DNA from: Eledone cirrhosa
Taxonomy: Eukaryota
Direction of reading: 5' to 3'
Assembly (NCBI GenBank): GCA_964016885.1
Contig: OZ024755.1
Location: 10,478,001-10,542,000 of the forward strand
Length of the DNA: 64,000 nt
In this document: one piece after another, positions 2,579 to 57,753 of the stretch
How the letters are laid out: each line of letters begins with the position of its first letter
How positions within the stretch are numbered: the first letter of the stretch is position 1
Notes under the pieces: model-generated
Seen by the model: only the letters and a program-made list of their open reading frames with translations
What the model was told of the DNA's origin: nothing
The model's database searches: none
Position numbers and translations under genes: made by a program

Positions 2579-3214
2579 TGCATATAACATTACTGTCGAA
2601 AACATTACATTGTATTATAGAAAGTATTATTGGCATACTTAGTGAGGCGCATTTATAGATGTAATGAAGGCACTTTTCACCTAATGATTAGGGTGTTGAA
2701 TGCCTGATCATGAATCAGCGAGTTTGATTTCTACAATGTGTAGTAGGTCTTGAGCAGGCAAAAAGCTACATTTCACGTTGCTGTTCATTGAAACACAAGA
2801 GAAAGTTTCTACGCAATGCAAACTGGTAGAAGGTAAGCTAAATGTGTATAAGTGTGAGCTGCGAATTTGGATTCACTTTCATTGCGCATTTGAGGCTATG
2901 TCCAACTGCATATGTTTGTAATAGTATTTTGTAGCGCATTCTGTTCTAATAGAAGAAGCCATCATTTCACACTAATTCAGTCCATTCAACTAGCAAAAAT
3001 AAAATGTACCGGCGATTAAAAGGATCGGCCATGTCACACACTCACAACAAATCCTGGCATAAACTTTGTTAATGTACGTCTCTTTGGAAAAGTCAGCTTC
3101 TTGTAAGTTAATTTCATAAAAATCAATTGAACTCATCGTCACAACCGATGGAGGCCGCACACGCATATTCCGACTACGAAATTTTCTGGTCTTGGGCCTA
3201 CTTTTGAAATCATT

Positions 3215-3746: not shown

Positions 3747-3933
3747 AACGAAGGAAATGTGGTAAGGAACCAGGTGGACCATAACGCACCAAATTACTCA
3801 ATACTTAAGATAGTAGAGTGGGTAATAGGAACAGGTAAGACCCCGACGGCTGAGCTCAAGCCGTTTCGACGGAATTAGCCAGAATTAGCCGTCGAAACGG
3901 CTTGAGCTCAGCCGTCGGGGTCTTACTTGTTCC

Positions 3934-4782: not shown

Positions 4783-4821
4783 GTGTATATGTATATGTGT
4801 ATATGTATATATATATATATG
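4256..4821. repeat. (TA)n/(TG) compound microsatellite
   Basis: Direct inspection. Source of spurious YI-rich ORFs. Confidence 0.95.
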
Positions 4822-5172
4822 TATTGGTAAACGGAATAGAAAATGCTGACAAATTGTTCACAGTTGAAAAATGGTTTAATTAGGAATAAAAGAGTATTAG
4901 TGATTGTATGGGTTAGTATTCAGTTGTGGTTTTAAGATCAGAGCAAACAGCACGGACACTCTATCTCAAAATTATTTTTGAAAAGCATTTAGAAATGCGC
5001 AACCGGTAAAAACTTAAAAACTTAAAACCACAACTGAATACTAACCCATACAATCACTAATACTCTTTTATTCCTAATTAAACCATTTTTCAACTGTGAA
5101 CAATTTGTCAGCATTTTCTATTCCGTTTACCAATATATAATAACTTGTGTGTTACACCTCTATTCTTTTAAC
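4822..5172 (+). mobile_element. Fold-back element with ~115-bp inverted arms and hammerhead-like spacer
   Basis: Arms 4822-4936 and 5021-5135 appear perfectly complementary. The 84-bp spacer holds TTGAAAA-GCATTTAGAAATGC-GCAACCGGTA. Short 3' tail. Flanked by (TA)n tracts. Confidence 0.8.
4975..5011 (+). ncRNA. Minimal type-I hammerhead motif, U3-A8 variant, probably inactive (GAAA>GCAA)
   Basis: UUU|UUGAAAA|GCAUUU-AG-AAAUGC|GCAA-CCGG-UA|AAA. Same layout as 40141-40170. Confidence 0.55.
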
Positions 5173-6080: not shown

Positions 6081-7641
6081 GATATACGATCGATATAAAT
6101 TTAAATAGTATATGTATGAGTGTATGCGTGTTCGTGTGTGAGTTTACGCATATTAAATAATGATATTTACACTATACTAATGTATTGAGTACCTTTTTAA
6201 CTGTGGTTCCTCACGAATCCCTCGGTATATAACCCCCTCATATACATACATATATAATCATGAATATCCATGGCCAATAGGCAGTTTCGCTTGAGGAAGA
6301 GGTAGAACTTTTGGAGACGTAGTGATAATAAGGTAGGCTGGTGAAAAACACCTGGTTTTATGGTTTGAGTGCTTGCCTTCTTAGGGTTTAATACATTTCT
6401 GAAGAAGTGAACTACTAGCAGGAATAGTTTAGTTATTGTAGGAAAGATGTAGTGGATTAGTTAATTCACGCTGAATAATCAACCGCCTCTCCAGTTCTAA
6501 AAGTATATTATATTCCAATACCAATGAATTTATGCTGACACATGAACATTTATAAAACAATATCACATATAGATATTCAATTATTGACAAAAATGACATG
6601 TTCATGAAATTTTCTTTCAAATTAATTCTTGAAGAAGAAAGTAAAACAAAAAATATTTCAAAAATATTTTATATTATAAATATATTTTTGTACTTTATTA
6701 CAATATTTTCACTTTGTAATGGCTAAGAAAAATCGATTTACAGATTGAAAGTAAGCAAACTTTATGTTTCGTTAATAAGATGTCAGGAACTACTTATTTC
6801 ATATCAACATGTCATTACGTGGTGACAGCCTGGTTATTACATAACGTAGACCTAATACAGTATATAATAGGCTTCTTAGCTTACAGTTAAAAAGTCGATT
6901 AAAAAAACCAATGGCTCAGAAATACTGTAATCGGCAGATCTGCAACAGTTCTGCTATTGACGTGTAAGGTACTAAATAAAGGCTTGTGACATGTTTATTG
7001 TTCGATTCACTGCTGCATACCCACCATCTCACGCAACCAATATATAGATATAAAGTCAACAAGCAGGTCTATATGAGTTCACTTGGCTTATTAGAAATAG
7101 CAGCCAAATTACTTAATTCTTTATTAAACAATTACCGTTCTCCGCGTTAACGATATGATAGTATGCATGAAATGTTATCAATGTTAAACATTGAATAACG
7201 AAGCATTTTATACACAAAATGACGTTGGTAGAACTCTCATGAATGTGGCGACATCTTTGCTCGATCATTGCTGACCTGAGTGTAAACGACATCAGCAACT
7301 ATATCAAGATATGCATTAAAACAAACTTTTAACAATGAATTATTTGGCATTTTGCGATCCACCCTTGAACTTCATGCAGCTGTCTCATACGAATACTTCA
7401 GCTGAAAGTACAAGAAATTGTATGTATATATATATAAGTATGTATACGTACATACATATATGTATACAGACGTACAGTAGTATGTATATATATACACATA
7501 CATGCACACATATATATATGTACGTATGGATTCACCGAACATTTATTATAATGCTCGATTTGTTTGTAAACAAACATCCCGAATTAAGCCGTACAGTGTT
7601 TAGGAACCATCGTTGCCCTTTTGTTCAACACCGACAAAGGA

Positions 7642-7684
7642 ACGATGTACTAGTTTCAAGCTTATTAGCTATCGTCAACACCGT
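7642..7684 (-). ncRNA. Minimal type-I hammerhead ribozyme motif
   Basis: Minus strand ACGGUG|UUGACGA|U-AGCU-AAUA-AGCU-U|GAAA-CUAG-UA|CAUCGU: 6-bp stem I, stem II, palindromic stem III, GUA cleavage triplet. Core has U3 with G8. Confidence 0.6.
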
Positions 7685-8044
7685 ATACCTTCCTGTCAGG
7701 TGATTGAACATCTGAAAGTATATACTTTCCTTATGCATATTAACAGCTGAGCAGCCTAATTTGCATATCGAGTGAGTTAATCGGCCGGGCGCACCGAAAA
7801 CGATAAATGGAAACAATGAAACGAAACGTATGTACACATATATGTATCTACGTATACATACTTATATTTAAGTAACAGCCGTACTATAATCAACAAATGA
7901 AATTTCGTTTCATTTTTCCCATTTATCGTTTTCGGTGCGCCCGGCCCATTAACTCACTCGATATGCAAATTAGGCTGCTCAGCCGTTAGTATGCACAAGG
8001 AAAGTATATACTTTCAGACGTTCAATCATCTGGCAGGAAGGTAT

Positions 8045-8087
8045 ACGGTGTTGGCGATAGCTAATAAGCTTGAAACTAGTACATCGT
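8045..8087 (+). ncRNA. Hammerhead motif, mutated copy (UUGGCGA core)
   Basis: Mirror of 7642-7684 with an A6>G change. Confidence 0.5.
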
Positions 8088-8356
8088 TCCTTTGTCGGTG
8101 TTGAACAAAAGGGCAACGATGGTTGCTAAACACTGTACGGCTTAATTCGGGATGTTTGTTTACAAACACACCGAGCATTATAATAAATGTTCGGTGAATC
8201 CATACGTACAGTAGTATATATATATACATACTACTGTACGTCTGTATACATATATGTACGTACGTATACATACTTATATTTAAGTAACAGCCGTACTAAG
8301 AGTGAGAAATGAAATTTTGTTTCAATTTTTCCTTATATATATATATATATATATAT

Positions 8357-8433: not shown

Positions 8434-8615
8434 AACGAGTAGGACTCCGACGGCTGAGCTCAAGCCGTTTCGACGGCTAATTCTGGATTAGCCGTCGAAA
8501 CGGCTTGAGCTCAGCCGTCGGGGTCCTACTCGTTCCTATTACCCACTCTACTACCCTAAGTATTGAGTACTTTGGTGCATTATGGTCCACCTGGTTCCTT
8601 ACCACATTTCCTTCG

Positions 8616-22861: not shown

Positions 22862-23707
22862 GAGGTGTGTCAGAAAAGTTCCAGGACTGATGTCACAAAA
22901 GATTTATTTCAAACCCAAACTTCACACTAAGAGTTTTCTCCTTCAAAGTAGCTGTAATCTTAACTCTCTGCAGGGATCAAACTTTTTTCTTCACAATTTT
23001 ATATACATGTCCTCTGTTTCAGGTCGTCAAGCAATGATCACAGAGCAACGAACGGTTGGGGAAAACTCCGTCAGAAGCATTGGGATTGCTGCAGCAAGTG
23101 TATGGAGATGAGACAATGTCACGCTCACGTGTTTTTGAGTGGTGCAAGAGATTTAAAGCAGGACGCGAGGACGTGGAAGTTGAACCCATGACTGAGGTCA
23201 ACGTTGAGCGCGTCAGGCAGATGGTGCGTAGCGATCGTCGACTGTCGGTTCGACTGATGGCATATGAGCTGGGCATGAATCGGGACAGCGTCTGGAAGAT
23301 TCTCACTGAAGATTTGGATATACGGAAAGTCTGCGCGAAGATGGTGCCAAAACTGCTGAACGATGACCAGAATGGTCGACGCATGCAAGTGTGCCAGGAC
23401 ATCCTCGAGCGTCTTGAAACCGAACCAGACTTGCTAGGACAGTCATCACCGGTGATCGATGCTCAAGGGGGTCATCAAGGGGACCCGTTTTGAAGACGTG
23501 GACGACATCAAAAAGGACGTGACGGCGGAACTGCGGAGGATCCCGGAAGAATCCTTCCAGGAGTGCATGCAAGCGTGGCAGAAAAGGATGGAAAAGTGCA
23601 TTAGACACCATGTGGATTATTTTGAAGGAGAAAATTCTTAGTGTGAAGTTTGGGTTTGAAATAAATCTTTTGTGACATCAGTCCTGGAACTTTTCTGACA
23701 CACCTCG
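22861..23707 (+). mobile_element. Non-autonomous Tc1/mariner element, 847 bp
   Basis: TIR CGAGGTGTGTCAGAAAAGTTCCAGGACTGATGTCACAAAAGATTTATTTCAAACCCAAACTTCACACTAAGA at both ends, extending to ~90 bp with 2 mismatches. TA flanks within (TA)n. Confidence 0.95.
23030..23641 (+). pseudogene. Mariner transposase pseudogene, catalytic domain deleted
   Basis: HTH region [51 protein letters not shown] (WVPHEL-like), frameshifted VITGD joined directly to LKGVIKGTRFEDVDDIK...WQKRMEKCI...YFEG. Confidence 0.92.
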
Positions 23708-25130: not shown

Positions 25131-25413
25131 AAATAATTGTTTCTACTTTTGGCACAAGGCCAAAAATTACCCAGTACATTACTGGTACTTTATTTTATCG
25201 ACCCCGTAAGGATGAAAGGCAAAATAATTGTTTCTACTTTTGGCACAAGGCCATCAATTACCCAGTACATTACTGGTACTTGATTTTATCGACCCCGTAA
25301 GGATGAAAGGCAAAGTTAACCTCAGCGGGATTTGAACTCAGACCGTAAAGGGACGTAACTATACTGGAAAGCATGGCGTCCGACTCTCTACCGATACTGC
25401 CAATCCACACCCG
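25131..25413 (-). mobile_element. Nested SINE family A pair (truncated plus full length)
   Basis: Truncated 3' half at 25131-25222 followed by a full copy. TSD GATGAAAGGCAAAATAAT at 25211-25228 and 25416-25433. Confidence 0.9.
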
Positions 25414-39174: not shown

Positions 39175-39367
39175 GGGCGGTGAATTGGCAGTATCGGTAG
39201 AGGGTCGGACGCCATGCTTTCCAGCACAGAATTACGGCCCTTTCCATTCTGAGTTCAAATCCCGCCGAGGTTAACTTTGGCTTTCACCCTTACGGGGTCG
39301 ATAAAATAAAGTAGCAGTAATGCACTGGGTATTTGCTGGCCTTGTGCCTAAAGTAGAAACAATTATT
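39175..39367 (+). mobile_element. SINE family A, full length (~190 bp)
   Basis: tRNA-like head (TGGCAGTATCGG A-box-like, GAGTTCAAATCC B-box), conserved core, AATTATT tail. Confidence 0.9.
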
Positions 39368-39395
39368 ATATATATATATATATATATATGATTAC

Positions 39396-39427
<32 letters not shown>

Positions 39428-39497
39428 GATTACATGTGTGTATATATATATGATTACATGTGTATATATATATATATATATATATACATATGATTAC

Positions 39498-39529
<32 letters not shown>

Positions 39530-39626
39530 GATTACATGTGTATATATCTATATATATGATTACATGTGTGTATATATATATATGTATATATAATTACATG
39601 TATATATATATATATGTATATATAAT

Positions 39627-39668
<42 letters not shown>

Positions 39669-39890
39669 CATGTGTATATATATATGATTACATGTGTGTA
39701 TATACATATATGTGTATATATATATGATTACATGTAATCATATATATATATATAAACACATATAATCATATATATATATATATATATATAATTACATGTG
39801 TATATATATATGATTACATGTGTGTATATACATATATGTGTATATATATATGATTACATGTAATCATATATATATATATAAACACATATA

Positions 39891-39940
<50 letters not shown>

Positions 39941-39947
<7 letters not shown>

Positions 39948-40248
39948 TTGAAGTTTTTTTTTACAAAATGAAAAATAACCGAGGTCTCCTAAACGAGTGA
40001 AAGTATAAAGAAAAAAAGATGAAATCGAAAATGCAACTGGAGTCTTATTTTTAAAAAATATATATATTTATTTGGTTCCTTTACCGGTTTCGCAGTTCTT
40101 CTGTGAGAAAAACCACAGACCCTCCATCTCAATTCTAGTTTTGAAAAGCAGAAGAACTGCGAAACCGGTAAAGGAACCAAATAAATATAATATATTTTTT
40201 TAAATAAGACTCCAGTTGCATTTTCGATTTCATCTTTTTTTCTTTATA
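39941..40248. mobile_element. Fold-back element with ~100-bp arms and hammerhead
   Basis: Arms 40004-40103/40149-40248, 45-bp spacer, ~60-bp one-sided tail, in (TA)n. Related fragment AAGACTCCAGTTGCATTTT near 63010. Confidence 0.82.
40133..40176 (+). ncRNA. Minimal type-I hammerhead ribozyme motif, U3-A8 variant
   Basis: UUGAAAA (40141-47)|GCAG-AAGAA-CUGC|GAAA-CCGG-UA (to 40170). Stem I is weak (UU/AA, possibly extended across a bulge). Confidence 0.65.
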
Positions 40249-40347
40249 TATATATATATATAAACACATGTAATCATATATATATATATTAATATATATA
40301 TGATTACATGAGTTTATATATATATATTTATGTATATATATGATTAC

Positions 40348-40389
<42 letters not shown>

Positions 40390-40431
40390 ACATGTAATCA
40401 TATATATATATATGTAATCATATATGTATAG

Positions 40432-40465
<34 letters not shown>

Positions 40466-40499
40466 AGTAATAATAATAATATATATATAAACTCATGTA

Positions 40500-40536
<37 letters not shown>

Positions 40537-40932
40537 ATAATAATAATATATATATAAACTCATGTAATCATATATATATATATGTATATACATAAACATA
40601 TATTACCCACTGAAAATTTTTCAATTATTTGATGAGATATTGATTACAATATTTCATCTAATTTGCAACAAATTCTTTCTCCTTAATTGAATGAATTCCA
40701 CGTTAATATAATATGTATGACATTTTCATTATATTTTCATTATATTCCTTTACATCCTCCATGTAGTTAGATATTTACTAATTAGCATCTTAGAGATATT
40801 GAGGTATATTGATTAATTATGCTGACGCAATGATAATATGCATGCCTACGCACACATGCCTTATATATGTGTATGTATGTATATGTCTCTATGTGCATGT
40901 ATATGTATATACATATATGTTTATATATATAT

Positions 40933-41204
40933 AAGTAAGCAAGTGTTGGTAAAATCCAGTACTTCAGTTTGCGGATAGGGAGCACTCAACGAAGATATAA
41001 GTTCCGGAGTTATAATAGTGACAAAACATAAGTCAATTGCATGAACTCATAATCCTTATATTTACTGCTATATATATTTCGATGATAGCCATTGAATGGC
41101 TATGCCTGATGAGGTCATAGCCATTCAATGGCTATTATCGAAATATATATAACAATAAATAAAGGATTATGAGTTCATGCAATTGACTTATGTTTCGTCA
41201 CTAT
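40933..41204. mobile_element. Fold-back element (190-bp palindrome) centred on a hammerhead core
   Basis: Near-perfect palindrome 41015-41204 with CCTGATGAGG at the centre, ~80-bp one-sided tail, TA flanks. Confidence 0.82.
41103..41154 (+). ncRNA. Minimal type-I hammerhead ribozyme motif, canonical core
   Basis: UGC|CUGAUGA (41106-12)|GGUCAUAGCCAUU-C-AAUGGCUAUUAUC|GAAA-U-AUAU-A-UA. The opposite arm gives GCA after the cleavage site, which pairs with UGC. Confidence 0.65.
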
Positions 41205-41474
41205 ATATATATATATATATATATATAAATGAAAAGTATAGAAATTATTGTAGCAAGAAGCCAACAGTATTCCATAACATATAAATGACTATAGCGTCAA
41301 AATGGAAAAATAGTTAACGTAAGATGTAGGAAAATCATTCAAACTCAATTCAAAAAGAATCAGGAGATAGATTCATCCACAGAATTTGGTGTAATCCAGG
41401 GAAAAATCAATAGAGCCTTAACTCAGAATAAAATAAAGTTTAATATACACATCCTTCAATTTTGAAAAACTATG

Positions 41475-41543: not shown

Positions 41544-41673
41544 AACGAGTAGGACCCCAAGGGCTGAGCTCAAGCCGTTTCGACGGCTAATTCTGGACTA
41601 AAAAATACTATTTTTTTAGTCCAGAATTAGCCGTCGGTTACGGTCCACCTGGTTCCTTACCACATTTCCGTCG

Positions 41674-42920: not shown

Positions 42921-43707
42921 CTAGGGCGGGTAAAATTGCTGAGATCCATGGATAAGTTCTTTCCAGCGGTCTCCGTCCCTCATTATCGCTGCCCTGTCCA
43001 GCGTCTCCAACAGACCAGTGTGTGTCCTTAGGGCATCAACATACGTTAACCTTGGTCTTCCTCTTCCAGTGTGTCCATGTAGGGGCTCCCTCAGGAGGAC
43101 TGAGTGCAATGTCAACTCTGAATGTCGGTGAGCATGTCCAGCTAATCTCAGTCTCCTCTGTGTCACTTTTGAGCTGACTTTTGGGAGGCTCCCATACAGC
43201 TCTGTTTTTCATCCTCGGTCTATACTGATTAATGTTCAGAGCCATCCTCAGCATTCTCGTGTAGCACCCATCCACCATCTGAGTGAGTTTCTTGGTCAGT
43301 GTCCAAGTCTCAGACCCATACAGCAGCACAGACTCCACTACAGCAATGAAGAGGCGGATCTTCAGGTCTTTACGTAGGTCCGAATTCCACACCGATCTCA
43401 AGCTGTGGCACGCCGCCCAGAGCAGGAGAGTTAAGGCGAAAAAGATATCAGATGCTGAATTTGCCGACGACATAGTTTTGGTGACAAATACAGTGAAGGA
43501 GACAGAGGATTTGATGCAGGACGTTGAGACTGTGTCGAGGAGTGTGGGCAGAGAATGAATGAGACTAAAACAAAATGTCTGGTAGAGAATGTTGAGAAGC
43601 CAGAGGGGATCACTAATGTAGGCGGGAAACCGCTAGAATTGGTTGAGGACTTCCTGTATTTGGGAGCAAAGATTGGGAATACGGAAGATGATGTAGTTGA
43701 GAGGAAG
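42921..43707 (-). mobile_element. RTE-clade LINE, 5'-truncated with 5' inversion, 10-bp TSD
   Basis: Minus 43420-42921: WAACHSLRSVW..KIRLFIAVVESVLLYGSETWTLTK..RRLRLAGH..GRGRPRLTYVD..stop. Plus 43421-43707: EFADDIVL..MNETKTK..VEDFLYLG..DVVERK. TSD AGACATCCTT at 42911-42920 and 43708-43717. Confidence 0.93.
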
Positions 43708-44518: not shown

Positions 44519-45111
44519 TTAGTTACATTGGCAACCATTTGTACGAACTAATATGTAAATTGCTTCTGCTACGTGATAGAACTATGGAAAGCGAAAAACA
44601 AATAGTTGGGATATAATTTCACTCCATGAAAACAACGTTTTCCTATTATGTATGTTAGCTAAATCAGTTTTGTCAAGTCAAACACACCTCATGGGAAAAT
44701 TTAAATTCTGCAGTGAAGCCAACTACGAATTTGTCAGTTATACTGTGAGCCATGTTAACAACGTTAACAATGACGAAATACATTTTATCTGTACATGATA
44801 CGTATGTACAAGGTGGACAGCACAAATTATGTGACTTTCTTACGGCCTTCTACACAGCGCTTATCTAGTGACATTGTAAGAATAATCGATTATTGGATCA
44901 CAAATAGCAGATTCGAAATTCGGTATTATGAATATGATTTCGGTGTTTGAGCACACATACACTTATGATAGATCTGACAGAAAAATATGCGATTATATAT
45001 CACCATGTCGGTATGTAATTCAAAAGGCCTAATCCTACAGAGGATGAAGAATCACTTCTATATAACTTGAATGAATGATTGTATGGAACAAAATGTAGAT
45101 ATTCCACTATG

Positions 45112-55527: not shown

Positions 55528-55674
55528 TAGGAAAATGTTTAACCCCGACGGCAGAGTTCAAGCCGTTTCGACGTCGGGGTTAAACATTTTCCTATTACCC
55601 ACTCTACTACTCGAAGTATTGAGTACGTACTCTGTTGCGTTATGGTCCATCTGGTTCCTTACCACACTTCCTTC

Positions 55675-57657: not shown

Positions 57658-57753
57658 ACATTTTAACTTTCGATAAATTACCTATTGCTAAGGGCCACAC
57701 TAATATATAGTGTAGCCCTTAGCAATAGGTAAATTTATCGAAAGTTAAAATGT
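57658..57753. repeat. 96-bp near-perfect palindrome framed by TTTCG...CGAAA
   Basis: ACATTTTAACTTTCGATAAATTACCTATTGCTAAGGGC...GCCCTTAGCAATAGGTAAATTTATCGAAAGTTAAAATGT. Confidence 0.9.

Follow-up and report, generated by a model that had tools for sequence, protein, structure and literature searches.

The window, a 64,000-nucleotide stretch of Eledone cirrhosa DNA, is AT-rich and loaded with repeats and microsatellites. The hammerhead motif described here (40133-40176) lies within a 300-bp island flanked on both sides by TA-rich microsatellites, the putative insertion target on the left (39360..39941) and a second run on the right (40249..40580), both with approximate bounds. The island contains a sense copy of a repeat on the plus strand (40102..40248), likely a 5'-truncated terminal repeat (pLTR) of a Penelope-like element (PLE), which comprises 39 nt of native sequence before U3, the hammerhead, and a 3' part ending in (TA)n. 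An inverted copy of positions 40149-40248 lies on the minus strand (40004..40103, from arm alignment) and overlaps the sense copy by 2 nt at 40102-40103. The arms (40004-40103/40149-40248) differ by one mismatch and two one-base gaps per 101 columns (97% in BLAST). Their pairing begins with the second base of stem II, in agreement with the first-pass annotation, which had placed the beginning of the inverted arm inside stem II (40149), and therefore this arm carries only the 3' half of the ribozyme.

Contigs or reads of four of nine listed sequencing runs were mapped on 40100-40246 at 80% likeness or more. X1 consists of contigs, possibly from the source sample and hence not independent, X7 of RAD-seq raw reads with the same species label from another sample and study, and X4 and X6 of contigs of organisms B and C, with two contigs each covering the core. 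At this threshold, which is blind to distant C3-G8 sister families, 4,597 X1 contigs (not a copy number), 2,577 X7 reads, 11 X4 contigs and 3 X6 contigs were mapped, revealing a high-copy dispersed repeat family common to another sample and two other organisms. The sense copy had depth in 30 of 30 bins in X1, X4 and X7. Loose ends before 40102 in these three runs indicate that other copies go on upstream with different sequence; 513 X7 reads continue there into sequence absent from the window, and one X4 contig extends by 205 loose letters into the shared element body. Thus, the copy at 40102..40248 is 5'-truncated. At the other end, the inverted arm runs about 59 nt beyond the sense arm (39945..40003, minus strand, far end approximate). 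The consensus of 717 X7 reads running past 40244 agrees with the first 30 letters of this extension with few differences, and the extension, present on the inverted arm only, therefore represents the native 3' continuation of the repeat family. The hammerhead motif is located about 130 nt from this approximate native 3' end. Sharp X7 read ends at 40131 and 40134 were considered as ribozyme cleavage products and rejected; they were taken as restriction ends, because the only AATT of the stretch lies there and X7 is a RAD-seq DNA library.

The hammerhead numbering used here is an established scheme. Reading the motif base by base and comparing the numbering with the core consensus quoted in PMC7151607, we assigned TTGAAAA (40141..40147, plus strand) as the 5' core U3-U4-G5-A6-A7-A8-A9, with U3 at 40141, A8 at 40146 and A9 at 40147; its seven bases are invariant in all three window copies. 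Stem II (40148..40160, supported by sequence, folding and reads) has a 5-nt loop and four Watson-Crick pairs out of four between GCAG (40148-40151) and CTGC (40157-40160), with G10.1-C11.1 as the closing pair and a fourth pair that varies across the repeat family. The segment 40161..40170 combines G12-A13-A14-A15.1 (GAAA, 40161-40164) with the palindromic stem III (ACCGGT, 40164-40169) and the G-U-A triplet (40168-40170), and cleavage is predicted 3' of A17 (40170). Positions 40141-40170 thus hold the core of a type I hammerhead, with a Watson-Crick 3-8 pair (U3-A8), GAAA, and U16.1-H17 (U40169-A40170). The motif claimed in the first-pass annotation (UUGAAAA, a 4-bp stem II, GAAA, palindromic ACCGGU and GUA) is present in every base. 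Its description as intact applies to the 13 core bases and does not extend to the whole ribozyme.

Stem I is built from 40137..40140 (5' strand) and AAGG at 40171..40174 (3' strand). In this copy, only positions 40140-40139 pair (U-A, U-A), followed by G.G and A.G mismatches, and the folding probability of the 2-bp helix is predicted to be about 0; helices I as short as 2 bp are known from published PLE hammerheads (PMC4209133). The mapped sequences carry C instead of G at 40138 in 99.7% of the X1 depth, in 100% of X4 and X6 (two contigs each) and in 1,470 of 1,505 X7 reads. This C pairs with G40173, giving nearly all paralogs a 3-bp stem I, and a subfamily with a further C at 40137 (25.6% of the X1 depth, one X4 contig, 5% of X7) has a 4-bp stem I. 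With C at 40138 in 97.7-100% of the paralog depth, the weak stem I, already noticed in the first pass, is a private defect of this copy at stem I position 2.3 or an assembly error, and nearly all paralogs have at least three pairs.

BLAST searches of the window identified two further sense copies, 4945-5010 (79% over 66 nt, E 1e-9) and 62928-63051 (69% over 129 nt, E 9e-6), and a profile search of the window found no paralog beyond the three sense copies and the inverted arm. The first belongs to a divergent paralog with its own fold-back (4814..5142, plus strand, arms 4814-4936/5021-5142), in which U3 lies at 4978, U3-A8 is kept, stem II has 5 bp and stem I 3 bp, and A13 is changed to C. The fourth pair of its stem II is U-A, versus G-C in the copy at 40133-40176. 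The second (62928..63051, plus strand, U3 at 62948) is without a fold-back and also keeps U3-A8, with 5 of 6 pairs in stem I and with the stem II closing pair and the palindrome decayed. Thus, TTGAAAA is retained in both divergent paralogs, and both show core or stem damage. The core is invariant at 12 of 13 positions across these three copies of 69-79% likeness, a count that is biased upward because the paralogs were found through the core region itself. Two blocks (40120-40131 and 40203-40221) have almost the same sequence in the 69% paralog. A short hairpin just 5' of the hammerhead (40102-40118, 4-5 bp by eye) lies where fold-back junctions cluster, and its counterpart in the 63-kb copy (62900-62930) has 7 bp by eye.

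Among the mapped contigs of X1, X4 and X6, no A>G place reached 3%, and all T>C places lay elsewhere than 40141. In X7, the variants listed cover three of the six T>C and two of the three A>G places. Since U3C and A8G variants all stay below 3% in X1, X4 and X6 and TTGAAAA is kept in both divergent paralogs, U3-A8 is, on the mapped sequences, the family state in these three runs and not a product of decay; a minor variant is possible in X7. Conservation of the motif among paralogs, which had been set beforehand as a test, was therefore found both in the window and in the mapped contigs and reads. In X1, 2,896 of the 4,597 contigs show at least 95% likeness. The repeat family is young there, so that the constancy of its core reflects the master copy and not selection on the copies. 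X7 reads vary at the fourth stem II pair (40151, T in 29% and C in 15.5%) and in 6-21% of them CpG-type changes affect C11.1, G12 and the palindrome, a pattern that fits neutral decay of the copies.

A strict U3-A8 descriptor, which does not require stem I, matched once on both strands of the window and in none of 150 block-wise dinucleotide shuffles. Rfam returned no match at gathering score across the 64-kb window, and no hammerhead was present among the 19 matches at E≤10 in 39900-40300. Taken in isolation, the 44-nt motif stretch folds no better than shuffled sequences (z -0.34). UUGAAAA might have arisen by a chance double decay (C>T and G>A) of CUGAAGA, both changes being GC-to-AT transitions in an AT-rich genome, or have occurred by coincidence in a MITE or a hairpin resembling an miRNA, given that the locus is a long hairpin scoring below the gathering threshold with several Rfam miRNA models. 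However, decay is at odds with U3-A8 in three of three window copies and as the sole state that reaches 3% in X1, X4 and X6, and a chance motif with its absence from the shuffles. The arms are asymmetric and their junctions differ among copies, unlike MITE terminal repeats, whereas the miRNA matches, which were rejected (58.7 bits versus 119 needed), reflect hairpin shape only. This explanation is largely refuted, and we regard it as highly improbable. Scans with the U3-A8 pattern returned 0 and 0 matches in viral, 0 and 3 in metagenome and 1 in prokaryote genome sequences; these matches (L001-L004) were rejected as chance, because the rest of the repeat is missing.

A genuine U3-A8 core in a type I hammerhead motif, as proposed in the first pass, is thus borne out by the sequence and the family state. 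Its presentation as a natural variant agrees with the same 3-8 covariation reported in several natural hammerheads and as active in vitro (PMC3088659, which in the passage concerned describes neither the present architecture nor this repeat family); its novelty was overstated, as U3-A8 has also been published in Penelope hammerheads (PMC4209133). According to the latter source, minimal hammerheads (min-HHRs) occur in PLE pLTRs, form opposite-strand pairs and show low cleavage as dimers only, and the U3-A8 variant, missed by the standard descriptor, has about 1,300 matches in Schistosoma mansoni.

Folding predictions outline how such a ribozyme would work and why this copy would not. The pair probability of stem II is 0.5-0.68 without the left arm and 0.0 with it, and both arms together form a hairpin of -147.6 kcal/mol. 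These models predict that the 100-bp inverted arm sequesters the 3' half of the ribozyme. In the monomer, the predicted probability of stem III is 0.0. The ACCGGU palindrome forms a duplex of -8.3 kcal/mol, and the minimum-energy fold of two copies contains both stems II and this palindromic duplex (-19.1 kcal/mol), consistent in the model with the first-pass view of stem III as suited to dimer cleavage. Nearest-neighbour energies speak against stem I: adding the 2-bp stems I of the copy at 40133-40176 to the dimer gives -8.7 versus -19.1, a cost of about 10 kcal/mol. The window contains no same-strand partner of this copy within tens of kilobases. We predict that the copy is inactive, because its stem I pair is broken, no same-strand partner is nearby and it is part of a fold-back.

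The family as a whole keeps the 3-8 pairing, G10.1-C11.1, GAAA, the palindrome, NUH and stem I complementarity, shows a compensatory change between subfamilies, and shares its core variant with U3-A8 ribozymes reported as active in vitro (PMC3088659). These features argue against a hammerhead-shaped motif that is vestigial family-wide, without cleavage, and retained by the pLTR for binding protein or as a promoter element. Such a role would fit helices that are very short (3 bp in stem I, 3-4 bp in stem II), the poor in vitro cleavage of metazoan PLE hammerheads (PMC4209133), the cleavage-independent insertion of the Anolis PLE in vitro (PMC11167929) and the window copies that span the cleavage site, but we consider it very unlikely.

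Several properties of the repeat point to a PLE origin. A 5'-truncated copy, an adjacent inverted copy and a one-sided tail are found together at this locus and likewise at 4814-5142, the hammerhead sits near the 3' end of what is likely a terminal repeat, and the family is dispersed at high copy number with AT and microsatellite targets (TA flanks). TA runs adjoin all three fold-backs examined in the window. Published PLE anatomy includes a 5'-truncated inverted copy, a one-sided tail of 30-40 bp and a microsatellite bias (PMC8557442); the tail at 39945-40003 is longer, at about 59 nt. By this anatomy, which is its only link to an autonomous PLE, the repeat is likely a leftover pLTR end of a Penelope-type retrotransposon. 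Pfam detected no RT or GIY-YIG domain in the 150 longest of the 212 open frames of the window (short broken remnants could escape). Truncated PLE copies would be without an RT/GIY-YIG ORF. A weak Pfam phosphatase match (44580-44795) was discarded, as its translation looked like noise.

The lack of an RT/EN ORF near the three window copies would equally suit a non-autonomous hammerhead element, SINE-like or retrozyme-like, that has no ORF of its own and is mobilised in trans, and animal retrozymes have been reported as non-autonomous PLE derivatives (bioRxiv 10.64898/2026.07.22.740005). The reading of the ribozyme would be the same. However, the tandem array that defines non-LTR retrozymes is not present, as the locus has one sense copy and the 64 kb hold three separate ones; the X7 reads and the X4 contig that extend before 40102 reach into a shared element body; and the inverted arm with its tail has the anatomy of a PLE. 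We therefore consider a non-autonomous element unlikely, and hold it probable that the locus carries a type I U3-A8 hammerhead in a high-copy repeat, likely a truncated and partly inverted PLE pLTR, that the ribozyme of the family would, as a dimer or assisted by protein, cleave 3' of A40170, and that the copy at 40133-40176 is inactive.

The window contains a number of other repeats. A second fold-back, 0.9 kb away (41011-41209, arms 41011-41104/41116-41209), has at its apex a canonical CTGATGA (CUGAUGA) minimal hammerhead (41106) with a long stem II and, after GAAA, a TA run. Almost the whole 5' strand of its stem I has been lost to the inversion, and the fold-back looks like a remnant of another PLE family. 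A Mariner-like DNA transposon remnant at 22876-23692 has terminal inverted repeats of 75 bp (97%) and matches Mos1 HTH_48 (E 4e-7). A palindrome of about 850 bp (7429-8282, 83% self-complementary), parts of which are copied at 61037-61290, showed no hammerhead core in a relaxed scan. Other families include a dispersed repeat that terminates in a hairpin of about 75-80 nt with a higher GC content (3764-3920, 8447-8600, 55572-55665 and 60591-60723) and a SINE-like family of about 190 bp (25222-25412), some partly tandem, with at least 10 copies at 75-95% and further members near 3214, 12304, 14805, 36037, 37422, 39175, 43999, 59914 and 60106. A 198-aa open frame on the minus strand (43039-43632) with a sub-threshold DUF6451 match (E 4e-5) is possibly a retroelement remnant, and more short near-perfect palindromes occur at 214-291, 41581-41636 and 57658-57753.

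Small Penelope hammerheads that cleave as dimers were reportedly described by Lunse et al. in 2016, and that work may already cover the present architecture. One of the closest known systems is the Cercyon PLE min-HHR of S. mansoni, whose U3-A8 families (PMC4209133, Fig. 2A inset, Fig. S3 rows 3 and 4) have the same core; row 4 agrees with the present family in the UUGAAAA heptamer, in G10.1-C11.1 and in a helix I of 3 bp. Cercyon motifs are mostly single and dispersed, with opposite-strand pairs 100-700 bp apart, which is a further likeness. In contrast to Cercyon, the present motif is without the extra nucleotide between A9 and stem II, its stem II has 3-4 bp instead of 4-6, a 6-nt palindrome (2 bp plus CG) takes the place of the bare 4-nt stem III, and N17 is A. 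The PLE hammerhead of Marsupenaeus japonicus (PMC4209133, Fig. S3) resembles the present one in having no bulge after A9, a 4-bp helix II, a 2-bp helix III closed by CG and A at the cleavage site, but its core is the canonical C3-G8 and its helix I has 5 bp. The Anolis PLE (PAc) is also alike, with a hammerhead in its pLTR, an AT-rich target, a tail set by an internal RT start and copying of uncleaved RNA; it differs in its C3-G8 core, known autonomous ORF and demonstrated protein-assisted cleavage (PMC11167929). That study reports internal RT initiation, protein-assisted cleavage, rescue by a 3-8 double mutant, and uncleaved RNA as the main template. The dimer model is reviewed in PMC6765202 and PMC6155905. 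Animal non-LTR retrozymes share the type I hammerhead and the PLE pLTR kinship, but are defined by tandem arrays, unlike the single fold-back found here (bioRxiv 10.64898/2026.07.22.740005).

By analogy with these systems, the history of the locus can be sketched. The master element would have carried U3-A8, preserving the tertiary Watson-Crick pair between positions 3 and 8, and in tandem pLTR transcripts two palindromes would join into a 6-bp helix III that permits slow cleavage. Insertion of the copy at 40004-40248 would have started with an endonuclease nick in (TA)n, and reverse transcription would have begun about 130 nt beyond the cleavage site; the template would be uncleaved RNA, because the copy spans the cleavage site. 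Reverse transcription would have stopped about 40 nt before U3, and a switch of template would then have produced the inverted arm. Insertion into TA, an internal RT start on uncleaved RNA, truncation and template switching are all steps that we infer from the anatomy of the locus and from published PLE behaviour. Later, a C->G change at stem I position 2.3 (if not an assembly error) would have weakened the copy, and a read-through transcript would fold into the 100-bp hairpin, abolishing stem II.

Strand-change joints, at 40102, 40102 and 40107 in X7 and twice at 40106 in X1 (with letters between), suggest that other fold-back copies break on the left at a similar place; each joint rests on 1-3 read starts or a single contig, one lies beside the AATT site, and breaks before 40100 are invisible to the mapping. 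In the window, the left break lies 39 nt upstream of U3 in the 40102 copy and 41 nt in the 4.9-kb paralog (4937). The clustering of inversion junctions near 40102 is a lead only. It allows a more specific, tentative proposal, for which the window breaks at 40102 and 4937, the three X7 joints (40102-40107) and the two X1 joints (40106) are the basis: a young family in three organisms would descend from a master with a very small dimer-cleaving hammerhead (36 nt from pair 2.3 to 1.3, with the U3-A8 core, a 3-bp stem I, a 3-4-bp stem II and a 6-nt palindrome), and its fold-backs would share one fixed break point, about 40 nt before U3, corresponding to the 5' end of the uncleaved template RNA. 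We regard this proposal as possible but rather doubtful.

The repeat copy at 40133-40176 is probably dead. By analogy, the U3-A8 hammerhead family very probably works like the Penelope pLTR hammerheads and belongs with them, its cleavage being predicted. It would then represent another lineage in which a Penelope-type hammerhead family has fixed a U3-A8 core. Searches restricted to CUGANGA and Rfam miss U3-A8, and such repeats therefore stay unannotated. The naturally occurring variants of stems I and II provide material for determining the minimum size of a dimeric hammerhead. Should the clustering of inversion junctions be confirmed, it would be relevant to the origin of the tandem and inverted ends of Penelope elements, and if the break point is indeed fixed, the fold-backs would document in the genome how Penelope inversions arise and would supply long dsRNA directed against the family.
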